Origin: an uncultured SAR86 cluster bacterium | Lineage (GTDB): Bacteria; Pseudomonadota; Gammaproteobacteria; Magnimaribacterales; D2472 | NCBI GenBank assembly: GCA_902520495.1 | Contig: CABYNW010000004.1 | Coordinates: forward strand, 40,995 to 104,994 | Length of the DNA stretch: 64,000 nucleotides | Reading direction: 5' to 3' | In this document: one piece after another, positions 1 to 43,861 of the stretch | How the letters are laid out: the number at the start of each line of letters is the position of its first letter | Position numbering within the stretch: position 1 is the stretch's first letter | The notes under the pieces: generated by a model | Database searches by the model: none | What the model saw: the letters and a program-made list of their open reading frames with translations, nothing else | Told to the model about the DNA's origin: nothing | Position numbers and translations under genes: made by a program

Positions 1-1205
1 TTTATACATGAATATATCAGCTCATCTAAATTTGATTTATTGTTCTTAGATGCAGCTTCAATTGATCCTTTAAAGACATTATGCACATTTTCAATTGAAT
101 TCTTGCCCATAAGAATATTATAAATATTTTTATAATTTAAAAGTTTTTCATCTTTATTTTTTTGTAACTGGATTTTCTTTTTAGACTCAATTAAATTCTT
201 AATGGTCTTTAATTCCTTAGTATTAGAAATATTTTTTAAGATTTTGAGCTCATTCTCGATCTCGTTTACTGATTTATTATTAGACTTTAGGTCGTTTATT
301 AGTTCCAATACTATTAAGGTTTCATCATTAATAACTTGTTTTTTTTCAGCAAAAAATCTGTCTGCATCTTTGTTAAATCTTGACCATAATTTAGGATCAT
401 CACGCTTTCCCGCGGGTCCAATTTTTTGCCAATCATTTTTTAAATCTTTAAATTTATTAATACAAACCTGGCTATCATCATCATTAATTTCATTAACCTT
501 TTGTATTAATAACACCTTTCTTTCCTTATTAATTTTTTCTTGTTTTAAAATTTCCTTATTTATAGGTTTTCTAGATTCAAAATATAATCTTTTAAGCTTA
601 TGTAAATCCTTGTCTAAAACTGGTGCAAAACTCTGCCATTTATGAAACACTTGATTTAGGTATCGAGAGAGGTCTTTTATTGCTGGCCATTTATTTTCAT
701 GACTTGCAACATAACTATTAATTTCATTAATAATTTTTTCACGCTCTGCTGCGTTATTAATTTTTAATTCTTTAATTTCATCAAAATATTCTTTGCATGA
801 TTCCCAGGCTGTATTAGTTAATTCATTAAATTTAAGCCACTGATCTTTTGAAGCAGATTTGCTTGAAATATCTAGTAATTGCCATTGGCCTTGAATGTTA
901 TTTATTGCATGAGCATGTTTTCTTGGATCTTCTAATGGTTTTTCTATAAGTTTATTCACCATCGATATTAATTTATCTCTTTTAGGATTAGTCGCAAATG
1001 ATGAAATATCATCAAAATAACGCGATTGATTAATCGCTGCATTAAGTTTGTGTTTTAATTTATTTGGAATATTTTTAAAATTCTTGGCTTTATTAAATAC
1101 GCTTCTTACTATCTTTTGAGCATTTTTTATAGAACCATCTAAAAAAAGCTTCTCAGCAGTTTCTAATTCTTTGAATAAATCTTTACTAGTTTCCACAATA
1201 TTCAC
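1..1205 (-). CDS. DUF349 domain-containing protein (3' end beyond window start)
   Basis: Not in the ORF track because there is no stop inside the window. Manual translation of the minus strand from GTG at 1205 (in-frame TAA at 1217-1215 just upstream) is open to position 1: VNIVETSKDLFKELETAEKLF... It has repeated helical modules with the DUF349-type signature W-x-K/Q-x-G...LW-x-RF...FF, e.g. DLKNDWQKIGPAGKRDDPKLWSRFNKDADRFFAEKK. The start codon choice (GTG 1205 vs GTG 1196) is uncertain. Confidence 0.7.
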   Translation of the reverse strand, partial: MNIVETSKDLFKELETAEKLFLDGSIKNAQKIVRSVFNKAKNFKNIPNKLKHKLNAAINQSRYFDDISSFATNPKRDKLISMVNKLIEKPLEDPRKHAHAINNIQGQWQLLDISSKSASKDQWLKFNELTNTAWESCKEYFDEIKELKINNAAEREKIINEINSYVASHENKWPAIKDLSRYLNQVFHKWQSFAPVLDKDLHKLKRLYFESRKPINKEILKQEKINKERKVLLIQKVNEINDDDSQVCINKFKDLKNDWQKIGPAGKRDDPKLWSRFNKDADRFFAEKKQVINDETLIVLELINDLKSNNKSVNEIENELKILKNISNTKELKTIKNLIESKKKIQLQKNKDEKLLNYKNIYNILMGKNSIENVHNVFKGSIEAASKNNKSNLDELIYSCI

Positions 1206-6736: not shown

Positions 6737-7966
6737 GTGTCCACTATATCTCTGAAATTAGGTTATAAATACCTTAGATCTAATAAAGGAGGAATGTTTT
6801 CCTTTACCACAATATTAGCAATCGTTGGCTTAATGATTGGTATTTCAAGTTTAATTGTTGTTACCTCAGTTATGAACGGCTTTGAAAAAGAGCTTGAAAA
6901 TAGAATATTGGGTGTAATTCCTCACTCAGTTATTTATTCTGATGGGCCTATAAAAGATTATGAAAACCTCATAAAAGATATAAAAGAAGAACCAAATATT
7001 ATTGATGCATCACCTTATATATCACTCCAAGGATTAGTTACCTCACAATTCAATAGTAAGGGTATTAATATTATTGGAATAGATATTGATAATGAAAAAA
7101 ATATGTCAATTATTCCAGATTATATGTTGGTTGGAGATATAAAAAATCTAGAATCAAATAATTCTATTATTATAGGATCGCTTTTAGCCGCCAATCTTGG
7201 TGTGTATGTCGGCGATAAGATAAACATAACAACGTCTGATATAAAAACATCCATTATTGGATCTTATCCAACTTCAGTAAATTTAAAAATAGTTGGTATA
7301 TACGAACTTAAAACAGAAATAGATCAAGTTATGACGATAGTGGCCCATTCAACAGCACAAAAATTAAAAAATATAAATACTGATGAAACTATCTCCATTA
7401 GATTAAAGACTAATGATTTATTTAATGCGGATGTTATCAGTAATAATGTAATAAAAAAAATTAATAACGAATTAGATTTTTCATCTTGGAAGTCAACTCA
7501 TGGAACTCTTTTCGAAGCTATCAAATTTGAAAAATTATTAATTAGCTTAATGTTATTTTTGATTGTTGCCGTTGCATCAATATTGGTTCTTTCAACTGTT
7601 ATTATGACTGTAAAATCAAAAGAAAGAGAAATAGGAATTTTATTAACTTTAGGTGCCAGTTCTAAACAAATTACATTAATATTTTTTACCCAAGGAATAA
7701 TTGTAAGTTTAATAGGAATTATTTTTGGAATTTTATTAGGTTTTTTATTAACCTTAAATCTTAATAATATAATTTCAATTTTAGAGTCTTTTCTTCAGAG
7801 AAATCTTTTAGAAGCTTATTTTATAAATTATTTTCCTTACTACATTAATTACACACAAATTTTTATTATCTGCACAGCGTCTTTCGTAATTAGCTTATTA
7901 TCATCGCTTATTCCCTCAATGAAAGCTGTTAAATTAAATCCTGTTGAAATATTAAGACATGAATAA
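6737..7966 (+). CDS. lipoprotein-releasing ABC transporter permease, LolC/LolE family (only copy in the locus)
   Basis: 409 aa with a GTG start. N-terminal TM, large periplasmic domain, and a C-terminal FtsX-type 3-TM bundle. N-terminus LKLGYKYLRSNKGGMFSF is typical of LolC/E. Followed by lolD with an 8-nt overlap. Confidence 0.8.
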   Translation: MSTISLKLGYKYLRSNKGGMFSFTTILAIVGLMIGISSLIVVTSVMNGFEKELENRILGVIPHSVIYSDGPIKDYENLIKDIKEEPNIIDASPYISLQGLVTSQFNSKGINIIGIDIDNEKNMSIIPDYMLVGDIKNLESNNSIIIGSLLAANLGVYVGDKINITTSDIKTSIIGSYPTSVNLKIVGIYELKTEIDQVMTIVAHSTAQKLKNINTDETISIRLKTNDLFNADVISNNVIKKINNELDFSSWKSTHGTLFEAIKFEKLLISLMLFLIVAVASILVLSTVIMTVKSKEREIGILLTLGASSKQITLIFFTQGIIVSLIGIIFGILLGFLLTLNLNNIISILESFLQRNLLEAYFINYFPYYINYTQIFIICTASFVISLLSSLIPSMKAVKLNPVEILRHE

Positions 7967-8636
7967 ATTAGAATGCATAAAACTTTCAAAGTCTTTCATG
8001 GTTAACAATGAAACTCTCAATGTTTTATCAAATGTCAATATACAGATAAATGAATCTGAAAAAGTTGCTATTTCAGGTAAGTCTGGTGCAGGAAAATCTA
8101 CATTACTTCACATAATGGCAGGTCTTGATATGCCTTCAAGTGGGATAGTTACATACAATAACAGTAATTTTTTAAATATCTCTTTAAATAGTTTAAGTAA
8201 AATTAGACTGTTAAATTTTGGTTTTGTTTATCAATTTCATCATTTACTTGACGACTTAACCATAGAAGAAAATATATCTATCCCCGCAATGTTAAATGGG
8301 AGCTATAACAAAAATACTAAAAATAAAATTCATAAACTTATGAAAAAATTAAACATCCATGATAGAAAGAATCATTTACCTTGGAAGCTTTCTGGTGGAG
8401 AAAAACAAAGAGCTGCAATTGCTAGGGCTCTTACAAACAATCCAAAGTTTTTGTTTCTTGATGAACCAACAGGAAACTTGGATATAGATAATGCAAGCAT
8501 TATTCAAGATATTCTAATAGATATATCAGATAACTATGGTGTTGCTTTAATCACAGCTACTCATGATAATGAGTTTATAAAAGCATTTAATAAAGTTTTT
8601 GAGCTTTCTAATGCAAAACTAAATGAATTGAAATGA
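7959..8636 (+). CDS. lolD: lipoprotein-releasing ABC transporter ATP-binding protein
   Basis: 225 aa. Walker [13 protein letters not shown] signature LSGGEKQR, Walker [13 protein letters not shown]. Sits directly after the Lol permease gene. Confidence 0.85.
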
Positions 8637-9247
8637 ATGAATTTATAACAGCTGGCGGACCTTTTATGTGGCCATTACTGGCATGTAGCGTTTTGATTAT
8701 AAGTATATCAATTGAAAAATCATGGTTCCTTCAAAATAGACTAGTTCTACCAATTGGACTTTCAAGACAAGTTATTAATCTCTTAGAAAATAACTTATTA
8801 ACAAATAAACAATCAATTGAAATTTCTAATTTATCATCGCTAGGTTTTTTGTTAATAAACTGTATTAAATACAAAGATCTTCCCAGAGAAAATTTAGAAT
8901 CCAAGATTGAAGAAAAGGCTATTGAAGTTAAATATATTTTAGAAAGAAGATTATCTATGTTGGGTACCATTGCAACGATTAGTCCGTTACTAGGACTTCT
9001 AGGAACTGTAGTTGGTATGATTACAGCATTTACTGGCCTAACTGAAACATCTGGAGCTAATCCAGACCTATTAGCAGCAGGTATTTCACAAGCTTTAATT
9101 ACAACAGCATTTGGTTTATTAATAGCAGTTCCTGGTCTTGTTCTTCATAAATATTTTGAACAAAAAATAAACTACCTATTAATCAATCTCCAAAAAGAAG
9201 TATCAGAATTTATTGATATCATTAATCCAAATTCAATACCTTTCTAA
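8633..9247 (+). CDS. MotA/TolQ/ExbB-family proton-channel protein
   Basis: 204 aa with 3 TM. Conserved C-terminal core [14 protein letters not shown] ... [14 protein letters not shown]. 4-nt overlap with lolD. Confidence 0.8.
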
Positions 9248-9651
9248 TGAAATTCATATCAAATGAAAAAAAATTATTTACTATTGAGATAACTCCTCTG
9301 ATAGATATTGTTTTTTTACTGGTTATATTTTTTGTCGTAACTTCGAAAGTAGGCGATTCACAATTTCTTTCACTTGACTTGCCTAAAACTGAATCATTCG
9401 AATATAAAACTGTCCAATCAATGAACGAGATTGTAATTATTAATAATGGAAGTATATATATTAATAATGATGTATTTAATATTGAGGATATAAATAATTT
9501 AGATCAGGCTATTTTTGAATTAGAAAATAACGGTAATTCAGTTATTTTAAGTGCTGAATCTGATAGCTTGCATATATGGATTATTACTGTGATGGATATA
9601 CTAAATAAGTATGGATTTAATGAAGTCCAAATAAGAACTATAGAAAAATGA
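9247..9651 (+). CDS. ExbD/TolR-family biopolymer transport protein
   Basis: 134 aa. Single N-terminal TM carrying the conserved Asp (ITPLIDIVFLLVIFF), followed by a periplasmic ExbD-type domain. 1-nt overlap with the ExbB-like gene. Confidence 0.8.
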   Translation: MKFISNEKKLFTIEITPLIDIVFLLVIFFVVTSKVGDSQFLSLDLPKTESFEYKTVQSMNEIVIINNGSIYINNDVFNIEDINNLDQAIFELENNGNSVILSAESDSLHIWIITVMDILNKYGFNEVQIRTIEK

Positions 9652-12407
9652 AATCTGGAAGTTTAAAAAGATTACTTGGGTATACTTTTAGATATAAATG
9701 GTCTTTTTTAATTAGTGTAATTGGTTTTATGAGTTTTGCTTTTGCAGATATTGCTGCTGTGGAGTGGATAAGAAGAATTATAGGCTATATAAATTCTGAA
9801 GAAGAAAATTTTAGTTCATTATTAGCACTATCTTTAATATTTATAGCACTAGGAAGGGGTATTGGATTCTTTATAGGTAATTATTTTATGTCTAAGGTTG
9901 GTTTTGGTATAGTTCATGATCTAAGAGAGGAGTTATTTCAAAAACTACATAACCTTCCAAAATCATATTTTGACTCTAATCAATCCGGTCAATTAATTAA
10001 TAGAATTACTTTTACGACGACACAAGTCTCTGGAGCTGCTTCAAATGCAGTTAAAACCCTTATAAGAGAAGGATTCCTTTTAATAGGATTATTCATTTAT
10101 CTAATAATTTTAAATTTTAAATTAACATTATTATTAATAGGCACCGCCCCTCTTATTGCTTTAATTGTTTATGTAGCAGGGAAGAGATTAAAAAAACTTG
10201 CAACAAAAATTCAAACAGCAATGGGAGATGTAACACATATAGCATCTGAAGCTGTCGATGGACATGTTGAAATTAAAAGTTTTAATGCTGAAGAATATGA
10301 AAATTCAAGATTCTTAGTCGCTAATGAATCAAATAGAAATCAAAATTTAAAATTAGAAGCAACTGGAAATATGGCAACCCCAATCATACAAGTTCTTGTT
10401 TCGATTTCTTTATCTATAGTTGCATATTTTGCATTAGGAGCTCAGTTAGGAATTTCATTAGATGCAGAAACATTTGTAGCTTTTTTTACAGCAGCAGGTC
10501 TAATGGCAAAACCAATTAGACAACTTTCAAATATAAACATGATTGTTCAAAAAGGTCTTGCAGCTGCAAATGAAATATTTGATCAGCTGGATCAAGATGT
10601 CGAGCATGATGATGGAACTAATGACAGCCCTATAGATGGGCATATTGAATTTAAAAATATAGATTTCTCATATGAAACAGGATCTCAAATCTTATCTAAT
10701 ATTAATTTTTCTATAAATAAGAATGAAACAGTGGCTATTGTTGGAAAATCAGGCTCAGGAAAATCCACTATAGCCAATCTGATACCAAGATTTTACAATC
10801 ACACTTCTGGAGAAATTTTAATTGATAATATTCCAGTATCTGAATTCTCATTACCCCATCTTAGATCCTCCATTTCTATAGTTAATCAATCACCGTCTTT
10901 ATTTAATGACACTATCGCTAAAAATATTGCATATGGTGATAAATCTATTGATGTAGATAAGTTAAAAGAATCAGCTAAGTTATCTGGATGTGATGAGTTT
11001 ATTTCAAATTTGCCAGAAGGATATGAGTCTGAAATTGGAGATGATGGTGTTCTTTTATCCGGCGGTCAGAGACAAAGATTGGCTATAGCAAGAGCATTTT
11101 ATAAAGACTCACCTATAATTATTTTAGATGAAGCTACATCATCACTCGATACAGAATCTGAACTGATTGTTCAAGAAGCCTTAGAAAAATTAATTACAAA
11201 TAGAACAACTATTGTTATTGCGCATAGGCTATCAACTATTGAAAATGCATCTAAAATTATTGTTCTAGATAAAGGTGAAATAATAGAATCAGGCAGTCAT
11301 GATGAATTAATTAATAATAAATCTGTATATCACTCTTTATATAAAAATAAATTTGAAGACTCACCAAAATCAAACTTACCCATATCTCAATCTACCCAAT
11401 TGTTTATGCCAGAATATGAAGACGAAGAGACCAGTAGTTTTGTTGTTGATAGTTGGTACAAAAAGAGTTTATGGCTGTACTTACTTTATCCATTTTCACT
11501 CATTTTTTCATATTTAACTAACAGAAGAAGAGGAAAATATCTAAAAAATAATATCAAATCATATAAATCAGAAGTACCAATAATCGTTGTAGGTAATCTT
11601 ACTATCGGCGGTACTGGAAAAACACCATTAGTAAAACACATTGCAAATGAGTTGATCAAGAGAGGATATAAGCCTGGTATAGTCAGTAGGGGATATGGAG
11701 GTAATTTTAAAGAAACACTTAAAGTTAATGAAGATACGCCAGTAAAAGAAACTGGTGATGAGGCACAAATTTTAGCTAAATTGAACATACCATTTTATAT
11801 TGACAAAAACAGAGTCAGAGCTGTAAAAACACTCACAAACAATCATAATTGTGATGTAATTATTTCAGATGATGGCCTACAACATTACCCATTGGCCAGA
11901 GATATAGAGATTGCAGTAATAGACGGCAAAAGAAGATTTGGTAATAATTTAACTTTTCCAGCTGGACCTTTAAGAGAATCTAAAAATAGATTAAAAACTG
12001 TTGATTTTGTAGTCAATAATAGCGGACCAACAGATGAAGATGAATATTTGATGAGCATCAGCCCATCTAATTTTATTCATTTAAAATCTGGTAAATCATA
12101 CTCAATTGATAATTGGCCTATGCATAAACAAGTGCATGCTGTGGCTGGATTAGGAAATCCTGGAAGGTTTTTTGATTTACTAGAAAAATTAGGTTTTGAT
12201 ATTATCAGACACCCATTTCCTGATCATCATAATTTCTTGTCTAGTGATATTTTTTATTTAGATCATTTGCCTATTGTTATGACTGAAAAGGATGCTTCGA
12301 AATGTAAAGATTTTGATAATAATAAAATATGGTATTTAACAATTGATGCAGATGTTAGCAATAAATTTATAGAAAAACTTGATAGAAAACTACAATCAAT
12401 CAATTGA
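9648..12407 (+). CDS. msbA-lpxK: fused lipid A export ABC transporter MsbA / tetraacyldisaccharide 4'-kinase LpxK
   Basis: One uninterrupted 919-aa frame. Residues 1-569 form a 6-TM ABC exporter plus NBD (GKSGSGKST, LSGGQRQR, IIILDEATSSLD) that ends like MsbA (YHSLYKNKF). Residues about 601-919 match LpxK from its own N-terminus: hydrophobic helix SLWLYLLYPFSLIFSYL, then the P-loop VPIIVVGNLTIGGTGKTP. An acidic/Ser/Pro linker is encoded at 11355-11447. Confidence 0.85.
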   Translation: MKSGSLKRLLGYTFRYKWSFLISVIGFMSFAFADIAAVEWIRRIIGYINSEEENFSSLLALSLIFIALGRGIGFFIGNYFMSKVGFGIVHDLREELFQKLHNLPKSYFDSNQSGQLINRITFTTTQVSGAASNAVKTLIREGFLLIGLFIYLIILNFKLTLLLIGTAPLIALIVYVAGKRLKKLATKIQTAMGDVTHIASEAVDGHVEIKSFNAEEYENSRFLVANESNRNQNLKLEATGNMATPIIQVLVSISLSIVAYFALGAQLGISLDAETFVAFFTAAGLMAKPIRQLSNINMIVQKGLAAANEIFDQLDQDVEHDDGTNDSPIDGHIEFKNIDFSYETGSQILSNINFSINKNETVAIVGKSGSGKSTIANLIPRFYNHTSGEILIDNIPVSEFSLPHLRSSISIVNQSPSLFNDTIAKNIAYGDKSIDVDKLKESAKLSGCDEFISNLPEGYESEIGDDGVLLSGGQRQRLAIARAFYKDSPIIILDEATSSLDTESELIVQEALEKLITNRTTIVIAHRLSTIENASKIIVLDKGEIIESGSHDELINNKSVYHSLYKNKFEDSPKSNLPISQSTQLFMPEYEDEETSSFVVDSWYKKSLWLYLLYPFSLIFSYLTNRRRGKYLKNNIKSYKSEVPIIVVGNLTIGGTGKTPLVKHIANELIKRGYKPGIVSRGYGGNFKETLKVNEDTPVKETGDEAQILAKLNIPFYIDKNRVRAVKTLTNNHNCDVIISDDGLQHYPLARDIEIAVIDGKRRFGNNLTFPAGPLRESKNRLKTVDFVVNNSGPTDEDEYLMSISPSNFIHLKSGKSYSIDNWPMHKQVHAVAGLGNPGRFFDLLEKLGFDIIRHPFPDHHNFLSSDIFYLDHLPIVMTEKDASKCKDFDNNKIWYLTIDADVSNKFIEKLDRKLQSIN

Positions 12408-12408
12408 T

Positions 12409-13113
12409 ATGAAGCAAAACTTTTGTATTATCATTCCATCACGAATTGGATCTACTAGATTAAAAAATAAGCCGCTTGTAGATTTAAATGGTAAGTCATT
12501 AATTCAAAGGGTTTATCTTAATGCGCAAAGCATTACATCAGATACTTATGTTGCAACAGATTCAGAATTAATAAAAGATAATCTTAAAGATTTTAGTGAG
12601 AATGTTGTAATGACTTCAGGAGATCATATATCTGGAACTGATAGGATATGTGAGGCTGCAAATAAATTAAAAATTAATCAAAATACTCTAATAATAAACC
12701 TTCAAGGTGATGAGCCCTTTGTACCAAAAAATTTAATAACAAAGCTTATAGAAGATTACTATCAATCTTCGTGCGATATAGTTACATCATGCACGCCTAT
12801 AATATCTTCTTTTGATTTAACAAATCCAAATTGTGTTTTAGTTGAGGTTGATAAATATAATTTCGCGACAAAGTTCACAAGGGTAGAGTCGTTAGATAAT
12901 CCTATGAGGCACATAGGGATATATGGTTATTCTTTAGAAACATTGAATAAACTTGTAAATCTAAAGCCAACAAAGAATGAATTAGAATTAAAATTAGAAC
13001 AGCTTCGATTTATAGAAAATGGGTATTCTATATTTGTCTCAAAACATAATGATCAAATACCAAATGGTATTGATACTCCAGAAGATGTAATTGATGCAAA
13101 TCTTTATCTATAG
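12409..13113 (+). CDS. kdsB: 3-deoxy-manno-octulosonate cytidylyltransferase
   Basis: The track start (TTG 12379) lies inside the upstream gene. The conserved KdsB N-terminus MKQNFCIIIPSRIGSTRLKNKPL begins at ATG 12409, 1 nt after the msbA-lpxK stop. 234 aa, with the NLQGDEPF block. Confidence 0.9.
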   Translation: MKQNFCIIIPSRIGSTRLKNKPLVDLNGKSLIQRVYLNAQSITSDTYVATDSELIKDNLKDFSENVVMTSGDHISGTDRICEAANKLKINQNTLIINLQGDEPFVPKNLITKLIEDYYQSSCDIVTSCTPIISSFDLTNPNCVLVEVDKYNFATKFTRVESLDNPMRHIGIYGYSLETLNKLVNLKPTKNELELKLEQLRFIENGYSIFVSKHNDQIPNGIDTPEDVIDANLYL

Positions 13114-13117
13114 ATAA

Positions 13118-14122
13118 ATGCAAATATATAAGAATCATCCTATTAAAAACTCACTTAAAGTTAAATCATTGACTAAATTCTATATAGAAATAGATGACTC
13201 TGATGATTTTAATAAATTAAATAATTTCATAATGAAACATAAGTTACCAGTAATAATTTTAGGTGAGGGGACAAATATAATTCCTCCAAGTCAATTTCAA
13301 GGCATTGTGGTTAAACCTATATTTAATAATATAGAAGTTAGTAAAAAAATTAATAGTGTTTCAGTTGGATCATCTATTAATTGGCACGAATTAGTAAAAA
13401 AAATGATTGAAATTGATATATATGGATTTGAGAATTTATCATTAATACCAGGTACTGTTGGTGCAGCACCTATTCAGAATATTGGCGCCTATGGACAAGA
13501 GATTTCTAATTTAATTAATGAGGTTCACTGTTATGATTATATTGAAGGGAGGTTTGTAAAATTATCAAATAGCGATTGTAAATTTTCATATAGAAAATCG
13601 TCTCTTCAATACCGTAATTTATTAATATATAAAGTAGTTTTTAAAACTGATGCACCGCATGTATTGAACTTAAACTATAAATCTATTCAAGATTATATTG
13701 ATGATAATGAATTGGATAAATCTAATATAGATCTAAATACTATTTCAAAAATTATTTGTAAGATTAGAAATAAAAATTTACCGGATCCTAAAGAAATACC
13801 TAATGTTGGTAGTTTTTTTAAAAACCCAATTATAAATATAGAAGATATTGATCTTAAGGCATTCTCAGTAAATGATTTAATTATTTGGAAAATAAATGAC
13901 AAAACTATAAAGGTTGGAGCTGCTAGATTAATTGATCTTATAAAAAATAAAATAAATGAAGATAAAAACATTGCTATTTATAAAAATCATTCATTAGTAC
14001 TAACTACTAATGCTAAGAGTAACCAAGAAGAAGTTTTAAGATTTGCAAATCAAATCCAGATCTTAGTATTTGATACTTTTAATATACATCTTGAAATAGA
14101 ACCAACGGTAATAACTAACTAA
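13118..14122 (+). CDS. murB: UDP-N-acetylenolpyruvoylglucosamine reductase
   Basis: 334 aa. FAD-binding PCMH-type N-domain (ILGEGTNI, GAAPIQNIGAYG) and MurB C-terminal blocks (CKFSYRKS, GSFFKNP). Confidence 0.9.
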   Translation: MQIYKNHPIKNSLKVKSLTKFYIEIDDSDDFNKLNNFIMKHKLPVIILGEGTNIIPPSQFQGIVVKPIFNNIEVSKKINSVSVGSSINWHELVKKMIEIDIYGFENLSLIPGTVGAAPIQNIGAYGQEISNLINEVHCYDYIEGRFVKLSNSDCKFSYRKSSLQYRNLLIYKVVFKTDAPHVLNLNYKSIQDYIDDNELDKSNIDLNTISKIICKIRNKNLPDPKEIPNVGSFFKNPIINIEDIDLKAFSVNDLIIWKINDKTIKVGAARLIDLIKNKINEDKNIAIYKNHSLVLTTNAKSNQEEVLRFANQIQILVFDTFNIHLEIEPTVITN

Positions 14123-35850: not shown

Positions 35851-37353
35851 ATGAAACTTATATTTATTTTATTTTTAACAACAACTTTTATATCTACTAA
35901 TATTTTTAGCACTGAAGATGCTGAAAACTGTAGTATAAAAAACGTTCCAATTGAAGAAAGATTTTTTTCTAATAACTTTTCTGGTGTTTTTAATGGAAAA
36001 AGACTTGATTATGTTGCAAGTTTAAAAGAAAAAGTTATTTATGAAAAAGATAATCCAAATGAACCAATGGCATCATTTTTTTATACAGAGTATATAGTTA
36101 ATTCTGATAAAAATAGACCAATAATATTTAGCTTTAATGGAGGGCCAGGTTCAGCATCATTATGGCTGCATATGGGTGTTCTAGGGCCAAAAGTTATAAA
36201 GGTTCCTAGTGATGCGTCAGATGATGGATCTGCTCCATATAAAATCGAAGATAATAAATTATCTCCACTAAGCGATGCAGATCTTGTTTTTATTGATCCA
36301 ATAGGTACTGGTTATAGTAGGGCAATTGGATGTCATGAGCCTGAAGAGTTTTGGGGAGTAAGTGAAGATCCAAAAATTATTGCTGAATTTATTAGAAGAT
36401 GGATTAATGATAATAAACGTTGGAATTCTCCAAGATATATTTTAGGTGAGAGTTATGGTGGCATCAGGGGTCCTTTATTGGTATCAGAATTAAGATCTGG
36501 TTCAATTACACCAATTGAAGTTAATGGCTTATTAATGGTTGCACCTGCTTCTGATTATCAGTATTTAGTTTTCCATCCTGGTAACAATAGCCCGCATTAT
36601 GGATTCCTACCCTCATATGCAGCAACAGCTTATTATCATGGAAAAATTGAAACAGATAAATCACTTCAAGATTTTTATGAAGATTCAAAAAAGTTTAGTT
36701 TAGAGGTGTATGGACCAGCTTTATTGAAAGGAACAAGGATATCGGAAGATGAAAAGAACTCTGTTATGAAACAATATTCTGAATTTACAGGTTTAAGCCT
36801 AAGATTTGTAGAAGATTTCGATATGAGAGTTGATCCTTCAAGTTTTAGAAAAGAATTATTAAGAGATGAAGGTTATTCAGTAGGCAGATTAGATTCAAGA
36901 TATAAAAATTCTGACTATATGGCAGGAGGTCAATATCCTGATACTGACGTATCGAGTGAAGGATTTATGTCGGCTTACGTTTCAGCTATACATACTTGGT
37001 TTAGTGAAATCGGGGTTGAAATGAAAATGTTATATCAAAGTGGCGACTATGATGTCTATTCAAGTTGGAAACATCCTCAAGAATGGAAAGGTAATGATTT
37101 TGGATACGTAAATACAGTTCCAGATATTGCTAGAGCTCAAAGATATAATAAAGATTTTAAAGTTTACGTTTCATGTGGATTATATGATTTAGCAACTCCT
37201 TGTTTTACTGCTGAAAACTTTATGTATGACAACACAGTTGATATGAGTAGGGTGGTTTTTTCAGAGTTCGAAGCAGGTCATATGATGTATAACCATCAAC
37301 CATCTTTTGATAGGTTTTTAAAAGAGATAACTGATTTTATTACGAATGATTAG
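35851..37353 (+). CDS. secreted serine carboxypeptidase, peptidase family S10
   Basis: 500 aa with a signal peptide. S10 blocks FNGGPGSAS, nucleophile GESYGG, acid region GLYDLATP, His region EAGHMMY. Confidence 0.8.
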   Translation: MKLIFILFLTTTFISTNIFSTEDAENCSIKNVPIEERFFSNNFSGVFNGKRLDYVASLKEKVIYEKDNPNEPMASFFYTEYIVNSDKNRPIIFSFNGGPGSASLWLHMGVLGPKVIKVPSDASDDGSAPYKIEDNKLSPLSDADLVFIDPIGTGYSRAIGCHEPEEFWGVSEDPKIIAEFIRRWINDNKRWNSPRYILGESYGGIRGPLLVSELRSGSITPIEVNGLLMVAPASDYQYLVFHPGNNSPHYGFLPSYAATAYYHGKIETDKSLQDFYEDSKKFSLEVYGPALLKGTRISEDEKNSVMKQYSEFTGLSLRFVEDFDMRVDPSSFRKELLRDEGYSVGRLDSRYKNSDYMAGGQYPDTDVSSEGFMSAYVSAIHTWFSEIGVEMKMLYQSGDYDVYSSWKHPQEWKGNDFGYVNTVPDIARAQRYNKDFKVYVSCGLYDLATPCFTAENFMYDNTVDMSRVVFSEFEAGHMMYNHQPSFDRFLKEITDFITND

Positions 37354-37388
37354 GAGTAGAAATTAAAATCTAAAAGGAGAAAAAAACT

Positions 37389-37898
37389 ATGAAAAAATTT
37401 AAAGTAAAAATTATTGATTATAAAGTTTTAGAAGTAGTTCCCTTTAATGATTATGATCCACCAGCAGATCTTCACCACATGAGCAGATTTAAAACTGCAT
37501 GGTTAGTGGAAATAGATGATGTTTTGTTTGGCTTCTATTTCATAAAGGAAGAATGCTGGTTAGGTGACTTTGTAGAAGCAACAGGTCTTGAAGTGAGTTT
37601 GTTTGATCAACCAAATAAAAATGAAAATTGGTTTGAAAATGAAAAATATACTGTTCTCTCTACACACCTGCCTGCATACGAATGGATGGGTGTAACAAAA
37701 GATACAGAAACTTATACCATCTGGTTGGATGATGATTTCAATGATTTATCGGAAACTGATGAAGAAAAATCTGCTCAAAAGTTGCTTCATGATCAATTCG
37801 TAGAAATTTACTACTGGCTTTCACCTGGCTTTGATGAGACATCTCCATCTGATCTTGACGAAACAGAATTTACAATAGAGATAGAATTAAACGATTAA
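37389..37898 (+). CDS. hypothetical acidic cytoplasmic protein
   Basis: 169 aa. Strong RBS (AAAGGAGAAA). Very acidic C-terminal half (DDDFNDLSETDEEKS ... SPSDLDETEFTIEIELND). No recognised family. Confidence 0.45.
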   Translation: MKKFKVKIIDYKVLEVVPFNDYDPPADLHHMSRFKTAWLVEIDDVLFGFYFIKEECWLGDFVEATGLEVSLFDQPNKNENWFENEKYTVLSTHLPAYEWMGVTKDTETYTIWLDDDFNDLSETDEEKSAQKLLHDQFVEIYYWLSPGFDETSPSDLDETEFTIEIELND

Positions 37899-40750
37899 GG
37901 GGTTATTCTTGATCTAGTTCCTAATCCCGGACCATAAACAATAGCATTTAACCATAATCTATTAGTTCCAAGTGTTGCTCCTCTAAAATTTGGTTCACCT
38001 GAAAATAATATAACCTGACCATCTCCAATTCTTTCTCTCGTCAAATAAGCAGAGTTAGCGATCCTTTGGGATGCCTCCGGCCAGACTAATCCACTCATTC
38101 TTACGTTAAGATCATTACCTGCAGGCAAGCTAGACCAATTTATAACTCTTGGATCTTCAATTTCATTATTAGGAATCATTTGACCTATTCTTACAGGTGC
38201 ATCAACGTAACTTCTTGCCATAAGAATAGGGAGGTTGCTATATAAAACAGGTATAGTATTTGGTGTTCCAAATGTTAACCAATGTTCATCATCAATCCTT
38301 CCTGCAACTATTGATCCTGATGGCATAAAGATTGATTGCCATTTATCTCTAGATTTAAGTTCTTTTTCAGATAAAGTTCCTTCTAACTCTTCCCAAGGAT
38401 AAGTTATATCAAAATCTATAACGTTGTTATTTGTTTTATCTTTATCAACATCTTCATATTGAGAATATACTTCTCTCAATAGATCAAAATTATACTGCTC
38501 ACTTTCATCAAAAGTATTTTGGAGCTGTTTAACACTACCAATTCCATATTCTGATGTTAAAAATCTAGTACTTCTGTTATGTGCAATTAATGTCCCACCC
38601 TGTGAAACCCAATCAAGTAGAGTATCTATTGTATATTCATCAATTGCTCGGCCACTAGGGACAATAATAGTGTTATATCTTCTTAAATCTCCATAACTTG
38701 CAAGTGATGCATTTATTAGACTGTGTCTTATTCCTAAATGATGATCTAATGACCACCAACTAACTCCTACATCATAAGAGTTAAACCCTTCATGGCTTAA
38801 CATAGCTATTTGGGGTTTTTCTAATAATCTAAAATGCCTACCACCCCAATCTGGAAGCTCTTCTGGACCAAATCCTGATTCAACTGAAACAACAGATACA
38901 TTTAACTCTTCTGAAACTAGTTTTACTAAATTTTGTAAATTAGTAACGTTTGGATTATCCATTGGTAAAACAGCAATACTTCCTCTAGATAATTTATGAT
39001 TGGATAGGGTAGATTCCTTATCAATTATCCTTACTTCTATATTTTGTTCCATTAGACGCGCAGCAAAAGCTACAGAATTATCATCTTCTCCATTAGTTGC
39101 CCAAATAACTGCACCTTTAGTAATTTCACTAGTAACTGGTGACGGGTTCCAAGTTTCTAGATTTGAATCTAAATTTTCATCTAACGTAACTGCATCTAAG
39201 CCATACATCATAGTAAAATTAAAGGCAGTGGTGTCATACATAACTGAAGAACCACTTTTTAAGCTTTTTTGCCTTTCTTCAACTAAAACATCTGTATTTA
39301 TGTCAGCATCAAATTCTAATATTGCAGCAATAAGTGGAGCCTCTGGCTGTCTATTAGGAATAATCATACTTCCAGCAGGAATTGAATAATTCTGGATAAT
39401 TTCACCAGATTGTAAAGTGGCATTTTCGACTTTAATATCTTTAGTATTTTTATAAAGCTCTATATCTTGAGCTCTTAATTTTTCAGCTAAAGTATTTAAC
39501 CTAGTATTATTATCTGTTGGTAAAACTACAAAAGTTTGACTAGCATATTTGCTATCTTTAGAGACATTGTATTTTCTGCCATCCCAATAGTCTTTATACA
39601 TTTCCTTTGAATTATTAAGCAATGACTCAAGATTAACCAAGGTGCTTATATATTGGTGGTGAACAGATTCTTTATAAGATTGTATAGTTCCTTCTGGTCT
39701 TCTAACACCATCCTCTGCCATTCTAGATTGTTCATATAAAATGCCAAGAGTACCTCTAAATTGTACGTAAAATGAATAACCAGGGTAGAGGTCTTCATGC
39801 CATTCACCGGTATAGAAACGCCAATTTCTTTTATCAAAAGCACTTCCTTGATCTTGCGCAAATACATTACCCCATTTAATTAAATCAGTGTCTATATTTT
39901 TATTAATAGGCTCTCTAGGCGGACCAGTCATAAATGTATCTTGTGGGCCCATTTCATGACCATCTACAAGTATTTGTGGCCTCCATTCATTAATTAATTT
40001 AACTCTTCCTTTAGTTTCAGGTTGGGTTAAATAGAACCAATCTCTATTTAAATCAAAATAATAATGGTTTGTTCTTCCATAAGGCCAGTCACCTGTATGA
40101 AGCAATGATTGATCATCGTAATTTGGCGCAGTACCCCTATATTGTTCAAGAGATTTAGCAAACCTTGCACGCCCGTCAGGATTCATTAAAGGATCAACGA
40201 TAATCACCATGTTATCCAACATATCTATAACGTCTTCGTCAATACTAGCAATAAGGTGATATATAGCTGCTAAAGCTCCATCTGCACCAGATGTTTCATT
40301 GCCATGAATAGAGTACGCCATCCATGCAACTGCAGGCATATCATCTATTAATGATTTTGCTTGTCTGTCAGAAGTAATTCTGGCATCAGCTAATTTAGTA
40401 ATATCTTCTTTTATTGCTTCTAAATTTTTAATATTGTTCGGAGATGATATGAATACTGCATGAAGAGGTCTATCTTCATGAGTTCTTGCATATTCAATAA
40501 CTTTTATTCTATCTGATTCATTTGACCATGTTTTAAGGGCACTTGTTATTTGCCAAGGAGCAGCAACTCTTTCTCCAATACCAAAACCTAAAAACTCATC
40601 AGGAGGAGTAACATCTTCTGAATATGTGCCATCTAAAATAGGAATTTGATATAAATCTTTCGAATAAGAAGTTGGATTCATCAAGTCATCTGAATGAAGA
40701 ACATTAGTTAAAGATATTGTAAAAAGGACCGCAATTAATTTAATTTTCAT
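37895..40750 (-). CDS. secreted M14-family zinc carboxypeptidase-like protein with large C-terminal extension
   Basis: 951 aa. Signal peptide MKIKLIAVLFTISLTNVLHS. M14 zinc-binding block AYSIHGNETSGADG and downstream NPDGR. About 600 extra C-terminal residues. Confidence 0.75.
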   Translation of the reverse strand: MKIKLIAVLFTISLTNVLHSDDLMNPTSYSKDLYQIPILDGTYSEDVTPPDEFLGFGIGERVAAPWQITSALKTWSNESDRIKVIEYARTHEDRPLHAVFISSPNNIKNLEAIKEDITKLADARITSDRQAKSLIDDMPAVAWMAYSIHGNETSGADGALAAIYHLIASIDEDVIDMLDNMVIIVDPLMNPDGRARFAKSLEQYRGTAPNYDDQSLLHTGDWPYGRTNHYYFDLNRDWFYLTQPETKGRVKLINEWRPQILVDGHEMGPQDTFMTGPPREPINKNIDTDLIKWGNVFAQDQGSAFDKRNWRFYTGEWHEDLYPGYSFYVQFRGTLGILYEQSRMAEDGVRRPEGTIQSYKESVHHQYISTLVNLESLLNNSKEMYKDYWDGRKYNVSKDSKYASQTFVVLPTDNNTRLNTLAEKLRAQDIELYKNTKDIKVENATLQSGEIIQNYSIPAGSMIIPNRQPEAPLIAAILEFDADINTDVLVEERQKSLKSGSSVMYDTTAFNFTMMYGLDAVTLDENLDSNLETWNPSPVTSEITKGAVIWATNGEDDNSVAFAARLMEQNIEVRIIDKESTLSNHKLSRGSIAVLPMDNPNVTNLQNLVKLVSEELNVSVVSVESGFGPEELPDWGGRHFRLLEKPQIAMLSHEGFNSYDVGVSWWSLDHHLGIRHSLINASLASYGDLRRYNTIIVPSGRAIDEYTIDTLLDWVSQGGTLIAHNRSTRFLTSEYGIGSVKQLQNTFDESEQYNFDLLREVYSQYEDVDKDKTNNNVIDFDITYPWEELEGTLSEKELKSRDKWQSIFMPSGSIVAGRIDDEHWLTFGTPNTIPVLYSNLPILMARSYVDAPVRIGQMIPNNEIEDPRVINWSSLPAGNDLNVRMSGLVWPEASQRIANSAYLTRERIGDGQVILFSGEPNFRGATLGTNRLWLNAIVYGPGLGTRSRITP

Positions 40751-40858
40751 AAGATTATATTAATGTAATTAAGAAAAATCTGCATTAAATTTTCTTAATG
40801 ATAAATATATGGTTATCATTGATTTATATTTAATTAATTACCTTGAATAGGAGAAATC

Positions 40859-41164
40859 ATGAAAAATTTAGTAATTGTATCTTTTCCAGCTAAAGAGGGG
40901 ATGTTGGAAAATCTTAAAGAAACCTTAAAAGCCGCTTTGCCTGAAACAAGATCATTTGATGGATGTATATCAGTTGATACATATATTGAAGATTCAACTA
41001 GTACAGTTCACCTTATAGAAGATTGGGAATCATTAGATCACCAATCTAAGTATCTTAATTGGAGGATTGAAACAGGTCTTTTGGGAGTATTAGAACCATT
41101 GTTAGAAGGAGGGGCGGCAGGTCTTAAAGCTATAGTATGTGGTCCTAAATACGAGAATATTTAA
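40859..41164 (+). CDS. antibiotic-biosynthesis-monooxygenase (ABM) domain protein
   Basis: 101 aa. Ferredoxin-like ABM pattern (VSFPAKEG ... ETRSFDGCISVDTYIED ... IEDWESLDHQSKYLNWR). RBS AGGAGA. Confidence 0.6.
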   Translation: MKNLVIVSFPAKEGMLENLKETLKAALPETRSFDGCISVDTYIEDSTSTVHLIEDWESLDHQSKYLNWRIETGLLGVLEPLLEGGAAGLKAIVCGPKYENI

Positions 41165-41221
41165 CATCATTATATTATACTACTTCGCATAATATATATT
41201 ATGTTAACTTATATTAGTTAA

Positions 41222-43861
41222 TTACTTTAAATTTATAATCTTTATAACTTCAAAAGAATTGTTTTCAATGCGTTTACTATAAGTAATGAAGTATGGATCT
41301 AAATTAAGAGGATAAGCTATTTTGTATCCATTTATAGGAATCTCTGCATTAAATATAGTCTCTTGTTCATATCCAATGTGTTGCAGTCTTGTCTCAAATG
41401 GATTACCTAAGCCTAATCTATAAGTTGGATTCATATTTTTATCATGAAATGTAACTATGTATTTATCTTTAATATTAATAGAACTATTTTTAATAAATTC
41501 TTTCTTTACTGTTGATGTTTGTAAATTCGTAATATTGATATTTTTGTTCGATAAATTAATTGTAAGTATTTTTTCATTGTCTCCAATCTGAGGCTTGATA
41601 TTAAAAAAATTCTTAGGCTTATTATTTTTTGAAAAAGATGTGCTTATAGTAGCTGGTTCATAATTTTTCCAATTAATTTTATAACTGTAGCCCAGAGAAC
41701 AACATTGTTCTGCATATAGGTAATTATCAAGGTTTGATAAATCAACTGTGTCGTCATGGTCCACGTTCCCATCTGTTTTATGCCAAAACCATGAACCAAC
41801 ATAAGGATTATTAGGATTATTATTAGGGTTAGTATTTGGATCAGGATCATAATATGACCAGCCTCCATATAGATTAAAAATACCAGCATAAAGATCTAAG
41901 GGATTTAAAGGGTCGTTTGGAGCTATTAAATTACCTGTAAGGTCTTGAACTTGCCATGAATAGGTTATCATTGAATCATCATCCGGCCTATCAAATGTTA
42001 CTTCTAATTGATTTTCTAAATCAATTTGCTCAACCCCATCAACATACCATGATAGTTTTAGCTTATTTGTATCGTATTCACCATTAATATCAAATGTAAT
42101 ATATTCCCCTATTGATTCAGAATTATTTAAGTCCACGTCATTATTTACATCAGATTTAATAATAAAATCTGTGAATCCATTAAATTGATTTCTAATGGAT
42201 CCAGCTGCAAATCCCTCAACATTTATTTTTCCATAATCAAGAACACAGCACCACATAACACTTATCCATTTAGGCCTATATGTCTCTTCTTCATCATAAT
42301 AAGTACCTTGAAATAAGCCTATTTTTTCCTTACATGAATCGTCTTCATTTGTACCAGGGTAATTTGGATCATAATCAGTATCATTTTCATCATACGTATT
42401 GTAGTAACACTCACAATCCTCATATTCCATGTCATCACGATAATAAATGCTGCCATCTGCATAGTTGTAACAAACATCGTAATCAACACCAGGAACATTC
42501 GTTATGTCTTCAATAAAATGATTCCATTTAACTTTTGTTGGATCAGAAACTTCTGTAGTATTTACGCTGAAATCTGCATACCAGGGTGAAAATGTTCGTT
42601 CTCCACGCGAATCATATTCATCACCCATAAAGCCATGTGAATGACCTAATTCATGTTGGACTATTTCATAGGTTCTTGATGACAGAGGTTGAATATTTAC
42701 AGCACCTTGCGCGACCCCTCTTCCGCTTAATGTTGTTAAAAATGAAACTACATCCCAGTCACCAGCTATATCACCAATCATTTCTCTATCAACATTTCCT
42801 ATACAATAAATTCTATCATCCCAAGATGCATAACAACCTGTTTCTATATTAAATAATGAAGCACCAGATGGGTTTGTTTCTTCTAAAACTCTAATATTGA
42901 AATAATCATTAAACATTTCACTAGCATCAGAATTTTTTAAATTATTAACTGACTCTAAAAGCCTTAAATGAAATTCATCTCTATCACTTGTATCATTTAT
43001 TTGATCAGCAATAAAAATATAATCTGTTTTAGCTGTGGTTTCTGAACTGCCGACCAAATAGTACAAATATTGTTCGGTAGATAAACAATTTAATTCGTCC
43101 TCATCGCAGTTATAAGAAATTGTTTGAACATCTTTATCTGAGATGAAATAGGCTTCTAAGTCCCCTTCACAGGTTAAATCAGTGCCATCATTAGCACATA
43201 TGTTCATATTAAATAATCCTGCTGTTTGTAGGGAATCAACATAAAAATCTAAGCTTTGTTCTTCTATAAATTCATCACCGCTTGGTATTGAGATTATATC
43301 GAGCTGAGCATTTATATTTTCATTTGGCAGCCGGCCATAGAAAGTTAATTCGCTTAATTCGTTATCGACATCGATAATCTCAACTTTTATGTTCAATACA
43401 TCATCAATTATTAAGCTTGTATCTGAATAAACGCTTAACTCATCAATTATGTTTATTACAGGTGGATCATTTACAGGATTGATATTAATAGCAATAGTCA
43501 TATTCTTTATTAATGTTTCTCCTGTTATAATATTATTATCGTCCAACCTTTGGGCTGTAACTTTAATAGTAAAACTGTCACCACCAAAATAATCTTGATT
43601 AGGTTCATAGGTATATAAACCTGAAGTGGTTAAATTAGATTCACCATTAGTTGTTGAATAAGTAATTTCATAAGTAATTTGTGATTTGTAATTTGTCGTT
43701 GCTGAAATCGTTGATGTATATGGATTATCTTCGTTTATAGAAATAGTTGATAACATAGGTAATGTTAAAGAAAAAGGCGGCGACCCACCTCCGCCACAAG
43801 AAGTTAGTATAAACAGATAAAAAAATAATATTAATGATGAATTTTTTTTCATTAAGAACAA
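41222..43861 (-). CDS. lipoprotein with cadherin/Ig-like N-domain and M64-like zinc metallopeptidase domain
   Basis: 879 aa. Lipobox ILTSCGGGG. N-terminal cadherin-like module (YTYEPNQDYFGGDSFTIKV ... NPVNDPPVI). HExxH block VQHELGHSHGFMGDEYD resembles the M64 (IgA-peptidase-type) signature HExGHsf.gL.DEY. Confidence 0.7.
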   Translation of the reverse strand: MFLMKKNSSLILFFYLFILTSCGGGGSPPFSLTLPMLSTISINEDNPYTSTISATTNYKSQITYEITYSTTNGESNLTTSGLYTYEPNQDYFGGDSFTIKVTAQRLDDNNIITGETLIKNMTIAININPVNDPPVINIIDELSVYSDTSLIIDDVLNIKVEIIDVDNELSELTFYGRLPNENINAQLDIISIPSGDEFIEEQSLDFYVDSLQTAGLFNMNICANDGTDLTCEGDLEAYFISDKDVQTISYNCDEDELNCLSTEQYLYYLVGSSETTAKTDYIFIADQINDTSDRDEFHLRLLESVNNLKNSDASEMFNDYFNIRVLEETNPSGASLFNIETGCYASWDDRIYCIGNVDREMIGDIAGDWDVVSFLTTLSGRGVAQGAVNIQPLSSRTYEIVQHELGHSHGFMGDEYDSRGERTFSPWYADFSVNTTEVSDPTKVKWNHFIEDITNVPGVDYDVCYNYADGSIYYRDDMEYEDCECYYNTYDENDTDYDPNYPGTNEDDSCKEKIGLFQGTYYDEEETYRPKWISVMWCCVLDYGKINVEGFAAGSIRNQFNGFTDFIIKSDVNNDVDLNNSESIGEYITFDINGEYDTNKLKLSWYVDGVEQIDLENQLEVTFDRPDDDSMITYSWQVQDLTGNLIAPNDPLNPLDLYAGIFNLYGGWSYYDPDPNTNPNNNPNNPYVGSWFWHKTDGNVDHDDTVDLSNLDNYLYAEQCCSLGYSYKINWKNYEPATISTSFSKNNKPKNFFNIKPQIGDNEKILTINLSNKNINITNLQTSTVKKEFIKNSSINIKDKYIVTFHDKNMNPTYRLGLGNPFETRLQHIGYEQETIFNAEIPINGYKIAYPLNLDPYFITYSKRIENNSFEVIKIINLK

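Follow-up and report, generated by a model that had tools for sequence, protein, structure and literature searches.

A single gene joining the predicted lipid A flippase MsbA to the lipid A 4'-kinase LpxK across the SAR86 group

We analysed a stretch of 64,000 nucleotides (hereafter, the window) from contig CABYNW010000004.1 of an uncultured SAR86 cluster bacterium (assembly GCA_902520495.1). An earlier note on this DNA proposed that a single open reading frame (ORF) of 919 aa joins a complete lipid A flippase, MsbA (aa 1-569), to a complete lipid A 4'-kinase, LpxK. The ORF list agrees: one ORF runs on the forward strand from an ATG at 9648 to a stop codon at 12405-12407 without any internal stop or frameshift, and the junction sequence (11280-11580) is identical to that quoted in the note (Table 1). 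Pfam and NCBIfam concur on its domain composition. The 919-aa protein contains the Pfam domains ABC_membrane (PF00664; aa 21-285, 151.5 bits), ABC_tran (PF00005; aa 349-498, 112.2 bits) and LpxK (PF02606; aa 611-915, 327 bits against a cut-off of 27, covering model positions 3-327 of 328), as well as the NCBIfam equivalogs TIGR02203 for MsbA (MsbA_lipidA; aa 7-570, 623.6 bits, cut-off 602) and TIGR00682 for LpxK (lpxK; aa 616-913, 242.7 bits, cut-off 91.95). At the sequence level, both assignments are unambiguous. AlphaFold2, using as input an alignment of 24 fused proteins, models both domains confidently, with a mean predicted local distance difference test score (pLDDT) of 78.7.

Table 1. 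Features of the msbA::lpxK locus, in coordinates of the window.
Feature	Position (nt)	Residues (aa)	Strand	Basis and remarks
exbB-like	8633-9247		+	PF01618; upstream of the fusion
exbD-like	9247-9651		+	PF02472; stop shares 4 nt with the start of the fusion
msbA::lpxK fusion gene, complete	9648..12407	1-919	+	919 codons + stop; ORF list, Pfam and NCBIfam domains
MsbA transmembrane domain	9648..10607	1-320	+	Elbow helix + six long helices; PF00664, AlphaFold2
MsbA nucleotide-binding domain	10635..11354	~330-569	+	PF00005; TIGR02203 reaching aa 570
Walker A, GKSGSGKST	10743-10769	366-374	+
Inter-domain linker	11355..11447	E570-V600	+	Limits of the earlier note; F598-V600 already inside the LpxK part
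Linker motif ΦΦP[T/E/D]	11403..11414	F586-M587-P588-E589	+	Followed by acidic run YEDEE; includes ATG 11406
Example tryptic peptide spanning the linker				SNLPISQSTQLFMPEYEDEETSSFVVDSWYK
LpxK, complete	11439..12404	598-919	+	PF02606, TIGR00682, match to A. aeolicus LpxK
LpxK N-terminal membrane-association element	11466..11549	607-634	+	SLWLYLLYPFSLIFSYLTN (aa 607-625), then basic patch RRRGKYLKN (aa 626-634)
LpxK P-loop, GNLTIGGTGKT	11592..11624	649-659	+
Downstream LpxK motifs		R681; 703-705; 741-746; H860		SRGY (R681), GDE, DDGLQH, PDHH (H860)
kdsB (CMP-Kdo synthetase)	12379..14122 (with murB)		+	PF02348; listed from TTG 12379
murB	13118-14122		+	PF01565 + PF02873; downstream of kdsB

The N-terminal part of the protein has the organization of an ABC half-transporter. 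In the AlphaFold2 model, helices at aa 3-14, 17-50, 56-102, 113-151, 158-204, 215-264 and 274-314 form the transmembrane domain and are followed, in the same chain, by an α/β ATPase domain. Besides the Walker A sequence GKSGSGKST, the ATPase contains the signature LSGGQRQR, the Walker B motif ILDEATS and the H-loop AHRLS, all four of which are invariant in alignment A2. Among half-transporters in the PDB, the best match is 9bd6, a lipid A-core flippase (548.7 bits), and the MsbA structures from E. coli and Salmonella match at 416-430 bits. The gene company of this half also includes lipid A and Kdo functions, with lpxK fused to it and kdsB downstream, and the same is true of related loci. We infer that residues 1-569 are an MsbA half-transporter, for which the established biology of the family would predict ATP-dependent flipping of core-lipid A.

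The C-terminal part matches the LpxK structures 4EHW and 4EHX from A. aeolicus (E ~1e-25). When aligned with 4EHW, its motifs GGTGKT, SRGY, GDE, DDGLQH and PDHH fall in register with K51/T52, R72, D99/E100, D138/D139/H143 and H261, respectively, residues whose catalytic roles have been described (PMC6286764). They are invariant or nearly invariant in alignment A2, save for D704 of GDE, which is on neither conservation list. The window protein thus shares with A. aeolicus LpxK (4EHW/4EHX/4ITL/4LKV) the P-loop kinase fold, the catalytic residues and an N-terminal hydrophobic helix with a basic patch; it differs in its overall sequence (~30% identity), in having Lys in place of E117, and in that its N-terminus is tethered to an ABC transporter instead of being free. 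We predict that this half has tetraacyldisaccharide-1-phosphate 4'-kinase activity.

According to the earlier note, attachment behind the cytoplasmic nucleotide-binding domain constrains the topology of LpxK, whose N-terminal helix would have to re-enter the membrane from the cytoplasmic side. The logic is sound, since a full membrane span after the nucleotide-binding domain would place an ATP-dependent kinase in the periplasm; the point is not new, however, because crystal structures already show an interfacial helix and not a membrane span. AlphaFold2 opens the LpxK part with helices at aa 598-604 and 608-633. The 19 uncharged, aromatic-rich residues SLWLYLLYPFSLIFSYLTN reach a Kyte-Doolittle 19-mer maximum of only 1.05, lower than in most true transmembrane helices of this protein (2.1-2.4 in four of the six helices of MsbA). 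Together with the basic patch behind it, the segment matches the interfacial helix and adjoining basic patch known from A. aeolicus LpxK, where the helix is needed for activity (PMC6286764). Being interfacial, it would therefore permit, topologically, the attachment of LpxK through a cytoplasmic N-terminus.

The same architecture was found throughout SAR86. The best 120 matches to the protein in a collection of 5.8 billion proteins, which derive from independent assemblies of four data sources (NCBI, ENA, JGI and Tara), are 918-922 aa long and 87-100% identical to it, and all of them (120/120) contain the three Pfam domains. We also scanned one genome per GTDB species and retrieved 78 loci, nearly all titled SAR86, including single-cell genomes, metagenome-assembled genomes (MAGs), closed or near-closed long-read assemblies, SAR86E and SCGC AAA076-P13. 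Both halves, which are 63-93% (MsbA) and 57-87% (LpxK) identical to those in the window, lie in one ORF at every one of these loci whose contig reaches the junction; no stop codon or frameshift between the halves appeared at any locus of the scan, and the 70 full-length species loci have an uninterrupted ORF of 919-930 codons from stop to stop. A second clade, with 47% identity and proteins of 912-915 aa, is likewise fused in 120/120 matches, some of them from clusters with hundreds of members, and includes "Gammaproteobacteria bacterium TMED112", the name-giver of a GTDB SAR86 family. Further away, a deep-branching "SAR86 cluster bacterium" MAG (protein P0121, 50% identity) also has the fused form. 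The earlier note had proposed to look for the architecture in related genomes, and it is present in all the SAR86 lineages sampled, whose sister genomes contain neither a stop nor a frameshift at the junction. Comparison of the window with its eight closest species representatives yielded ratios of nonsynonymous to synonymous substitution rates (dN/dS) of 0.03-0.08 in both halves, with dS saturated (>1.2), and dN ranging over 0.05-0.09 for MsbA and 0.08-0.11 for LpxK. As judged from these comparisons, both halves are under equally strong purifying selection, and the fusion characterises all SAR86 lineages that were sampled, rather than a single assembly.

The linker that joins the halves is ~28-31 aa long, and the limits given for it in the earlier note (nt 11355-11447, with M587 encoded by the ATG at 11406) were correct. 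The junction in the window reads SLYKNKFED-[SPKSNLPISQSTQLFMPEYEDEETSS]-FVVDSWYKKSLW. AlphaFold2 assigns residues 569-598 a pLDDT below 50 and no secondary structure, so we predict that the linker is a disordered, flexible tether. Its columns are less conserved than those of the domains (0.47 versus 0.74-0.85), and its dN, the only usable measure here because dS is saturated and precludes dN/dS, is 0.11-0.53, that is, two to six times that of the domains. Its length is conserved, with 35-39 aa from LYKN to WYKKS across 69 species. The first half is variable and rich in Ser, Lys and Pro, and is followed by a conserved motif, ΦΦP[T/E/D], and an acidic run; together they read FMPEYEDEE in the window (aa 586-594; 11403-11429), and YLPTFTEEP, YLPDFYEEE or FVPTLINE elsewhere, the acidic run usually coming after the motif. 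We detected ΦΦP[T/E/D] in 37/45 and 24/25 unique SAR86 linkers, as compared with 3.9 and 2.0 expected by shuffling, an enrichment of ~10-fold, and its distance to the LpxK N-terminus is constant across SAR86 families.

Two properties of the linker turned out to be less informative. The earlier note took its 31 stop-free codons as an argument against simple read-through; in one genome this argument is weak, because 11% of linker shuffles have no stop and ~5% of 31-codon windows are open in the gene's two other frames. The fusion is proven because it is conserved across species, and not because one linker is open. Likewise, a minimum linker length of ~23 residues derived by geometry, from the gaps between H-loop and P-loop, was called into question by the TMED112 clade, in which the signature-to-P-loop measure gives just 13 extra residues. 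Direct inspection of this clade still gives a linker of ~27 aa and the 13-residue difference lies elsewhere, so that the geometric lower bound is suggestive only.

Fused proteins are not confined to SAR86. Among the best 150 of 1.84 billion representatives of 50%-identity clusters, 18 were fused, being 912-1146 aa long and 33-50% identical to the query. We retrieved the gene context of seven of these 18. One of them, L085, is the SAR86 locus of P0121 (32% guanine plus cytosine, GC), whereas contig GC is 65% in L079, 70% in L080, 48% in L081, 74% in L082 and 49-52% in L086 and L087; the high-GC contigs belong to uncultured bacteria and show gammaproteobacterial synteny. In all seven contexts kdsB lies downstream of the fusion, with trm112 and murB following in several, and exbB-exbD lies upstream in all except L086 and L085; the order exbB-exbD-fusion of the window is thus repeated in L079-L082 and L087. 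The linkers outside SAR86 are rich in Pro, Ala and Ser, vary in length and are unrelated in sequence to the SAR86 linker. A profile search with the non-SAR86 fusions retrieved mostly eukaryotic ABCB transporters, together with ~18 fused matches labelled only "Gammaproteobacteria bacterium". In a neighbour-joining tree of the MsbA domain, one clade holds all the SAR86 fusions and the remainder is star-like, with fused and unfused proteins interleaved. This topology is compatible with one ancient fusion as well as with several.

The likely starting point of the fusion can be appreciated in an unfused relative, P0142 (locus L084, 41% GC), which shows 46% identity, is among the nearest unfused MsbA proteins and adjoins the SAR86 clade in the neighbour-joining tree; for P0138, the nearest unfused MsbA, the contig is too short to show any gene context. 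L084 contains exbD, an msbA gene whose product ends in SLYEKRFDQV, a 12-nt gap, and an lpxK gene whose product starts with MNLLENSWYKDAGW, which aligns with VVDSWYKKSLW of the window. The local order exbD-msbA-lpxK is therefore shared, but L084, unlike the window, has a stop codon and a 12-nt spacer, and its MsbA ends three residues past RFD, without the ~25-aa linker. As far as the sequences tell, L084 shows the ancestral operon state, from which we infer that the msbA stop of an ancestral msbA-lpxK operon was lost and ~25 linker residues were gained. The fusion would thus be more than the bare loss of a stop, because these ~25 residues are extra with respect to L084. In 350 fused proteins, 168-215 aa separate the ABC signature from the LpxK P-loop, versus 156 aa for the summed unfused parts.

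Together, these results make it quite likely that msbA::lpxK is a genuine, selectively maintained gene fusion that encodes one bifunctional inner-membrane protein. From the biology of the family, the MsbA half would form homodimers that flip core-lipid A from one side of the inner membrane to the other. On a disordered tether of ~28-31 residues at the C-terminus of its ATPase domain, every subunit would bear one complete LpxK, hence two per dimer. Anchored by its own interfacial helix and basic patch, LpxK would rest against the cytoplasmic leaflet, where it could phosphorylate tetraacyldisaccharide-1-phosphate to lipid IVA next to the exporter. Nothing here implies a direct hand-over of substrate from LpxK to MsbA: the steps that lead from lipid IVA to the molecule usually transported by MsbA are carried out by WaaA and the late acyltransferases (PMC8151780). 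The proposal in the earlier note that the kinase step is tethered to the flippase stands as far as the gene is concerned, but not in the sense that LpxK feeds MsbA directly. In E. coli, lipid IVA is nonetheless the smallest structure whose export still keeps the cell alive (PMC6286764). The benefit of the arrangement may be that the kinase, which is essential and potentially rate-controlling, is produced at a fixed 1:1 ratio with the transporter that exports the product of the pathway, and is inserted into the membrane and localised together with it; in addition, lpxK would not need a separate translation start.

Several observations weigh against this interpretation. The MsbA half clears TIGR02203 only narrowly (623.6 versus 602 bits) and falls below the enterobacterial-type model NF008381 (520.9 versus 867). 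The predicted template modelling score (pTM) of the AlphaFold2 model is 0.54, so that the relative placement of the MsbA and LpxK domains is not predicted. We found no second, free-standing lpxK or msbA within the 64-kb window, the part of the genome that was scanned. Lastly, persistence alone is no proof of benefit, because a fused gene is hard to split again.

This last point leads to the most serious competing explanation, possible in our view though decidedly less probable: the fusion would be a by-product of streamlining in a tightly spaced operon, without functional coupling, and it would persist since separating the genes again requires a new stop, a ribosome-binding site and a start codon. 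The spacer of the unfused relative is indeed only 12 nt, and the window is ~96% coding with ~30% GC, typical of streamlined SAR86 (PMC11582366). The linker is poorly conserved in its first half and tracks genomic GC in its composition, with Ser, Lys and Asn in SAR86 and Pro and Ala in high-GC lineages. However, stop loss across a 12-nt spacer would yield ~4 linker residues and not ~27, and the signature-to-P-loop distances of the 350 fused proteins all exceed that of the unfused parts. Moreover, SAR86 has kept the length of the linker and an enriched ΦΦP-acidic motif at a constant position. As the sole cause, streamlining is in any case weakened by the fused genes on contigs with a GC content of 48-74%, which sets these apart from the AT-rich, streamlined genomes of SAR86.

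The conserved motif suggests a further, rather improbable explanation, in which the fusion serves regulation: the activity of LpxK, or its access to the membrane, would be tied to the conformational cycle of MsbA, through the opening and closing of the ATPase domains or the docking of the linker motif, so that lipid A synthesis is throttled by export capacity. The constant position of the motif and the acidic run that follows it, near the basic patch of LpxK, would fit this possibility, as would the proposal that LpxK is a second control point of the pathway (PMC6286764) and the co-expression of msbA and lpxK even in E. coli (PMC10328246). Against this speculative reading, AlphaFold2 predicts no structure for the linker, and outside SAR86 the fusions show no recognisable form of the motif. 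At a similarly low level of confidence, the idea can be extended to regard the fusion as the trace of an obligate MsbA-LpxK partnership, which would be non-covalent where the genes are merely adjacent; MsbA would then scaffold late lipid A assembly and, in SAR86, the ΦΦP-acidic motif would dock LpxK, with the kinase gated by the nucleotide cycle and synthesis thereby matched to export.

Marginally less plausible still is that the gene gives two products, with free LpxK arising by internal initiation, for example at M587, or by proteolysis of the linker, and both proteins acting separately as in E. coli. The window does have the in-frame ATG at 11406 that the earlier note had put forward as a start for LpxK, and a linker predicted to be disordered would be accessible to proteases. 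But an in-frame linker ATG exists in only 22/69 species, many SAR86 linkers lack any ATG, GTG or TTG, and most lineages have V, I or L in place of M587; as no start codon is conserved, LpxK is unlikely to be initiated independently. An open frame maintained over at least 70 species would, besides, be needless if lpxK were translated independently. As to an assembly or sequencing error, or a pseudogene, having removed the msbA stop in this contig, such errors do occur and a linker would be open by chance in 11% of cases, but the probability is negligible and the idea is refuted by the recurrence of the fusion across four data sources, in hundreds of assemblies made independently of one another as well as in single-cell genomes and closed long-read MAGs, and by the strong purifying selection on both halves.

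MsbA and LpxK are both essential and both antibiotic targets, and their genes lie side by side in many Proteobacteria; to our knowledge, no physical link between the two proteins has been established. In E. coli they are encoded by the operon ycaI-msbA-lpxK-ycaQ (PMC10328246, PMC8151780), which has the same two proteins, gene order and co-transcription, and where, as the earlier note had indicated, the genes are adjacent but separate. E. coli therefore makes two polypeptides, while in the window there is no stop and a linker predicted to be disordered joins the C-terminus of MsbA to the N-terminus of LpxK. The flanking genes also differ from those of E. coli, with exbB-exbD upstream and kdsB-murB downstream in the window.

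In PCAT/bacteriocin exporters, an ABC half-transporter is covalently fused to an enzyme of the pathway of its cargo. By NCBIfam, PCAT-type families (of the TIGR01193 type) are distant sequence relatives of the MsbA half. In PCATs the enzyme forms the N-terminal domain and works directly on the cargo immediately before this is transported, whereas that of the window is C-terminal; unlike the PCAT peptidase, LpxK acts on a membrane lipid, several steps upstream of the molecule that is transported. A precedent for the lineage-wide fusion of adjacent lipid A genes is the lpxC/fabZ gene fusion of Bacteroidetes, Chlorobi and Verrucomicrobia (PMC3087551), although it joins two soluble enzymes and does not involve a transporter.

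Full-text literature searches, which included the paper on the SAR86 isolate (PMC11582366), did not retrieve any description or characterisation of an MsbA-LpxK fusion. The architecture is common in sequence databases, one part of what the earlier note had thought might invalidate its proposal; the other part, a paper characterising it, was not found. The database labels of fused proteins are "MsbA", "lipid ABC transporter permease" and "tetraacyldisaccharide 4'-kinase"; where only MsbA or a lipid ABC transporter permease is named, automated reconstruction of pathways may lead to the false conclusion that SAR86 has no LpxK.

The fusion extends across one of the most abundant bacterial orders of the ocean and appears again in unrelated-looking, high-GC contigs. 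It would constitute "Rosetta stone" evidence that MsbA and LpxK work side by side, from which the hypothesis follows that both proteins might interact in E. coli, and a natural, independent confirmation that the N-terminal helix of LpxK does not cross the membrane. It could also provide a ready-made tethered complex of enzyme and transporter for cryo-electron microscopy, and in vivo work is feasible now that a first SAR86 isolate exists (PMC11582366).

Several details of the genes around the fusion are worth recording. The block preceding it in the window, SDR-aldehyde dehydrogenase-lolCE-lolD, is carried by L079-L081 too, and the downstream neighbours kdsB and murB recur in related loci. The kdsB ORF, as listed from TTG 12379, overlaps the 3' end of the fusion by 29 nt (window 12379-12411); its likelier start is the ATG at 12409 (MKQNFCIIIPSR...), one base past the fusion stop. 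A small gene of the Trm112 family lies between the fusion and kdsB in L080 (11441-11770), L082 (10813-11010), L085 (10817-11005) and L087 (10944-11120), but the window lacks it. In L085, the immediate upstream neighbour of the fusion is lolD (7283-8001), and the exbB-exbD pair of the window is missing. The kdsB gene downstream of the fusion in L079 is split into two ORFs (11139-11902; 101 and 153 aa), which may be due to a frameshift or to a long-read assembly error. P0181, the 1146-aa fused protein of L080 (8001-11441), has ~185 extra residues past LpxK without any Pfam match; when compared with the MsbA half of the window, its ABC half reaches no more than 219 bits.

Over its entire length (1-64000), the window has the coding density (~96%) and GC content (~30%) expected for SAR86 (PMC11582366). 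A tRNA scan did not detect tRNA genes in the 64 kb, nor were there Rfam families at the gathering threshold. A homologue of glyceraldehyde-3-phosphate dehydrogenase of 500 aa is encoded on the reverse strand at 60665-62167, with its NAD-binding domain starting at aa 149 and with no Pfam match in the N-terminal ~148 residues. Finally, large predicted peptidases are clustered at 35851-43861, comprising an S10 serine carboxypeptidase of 500 aa, an M14 carboxypeptidase of 951 aa and an M64-like protein of 879 aa.

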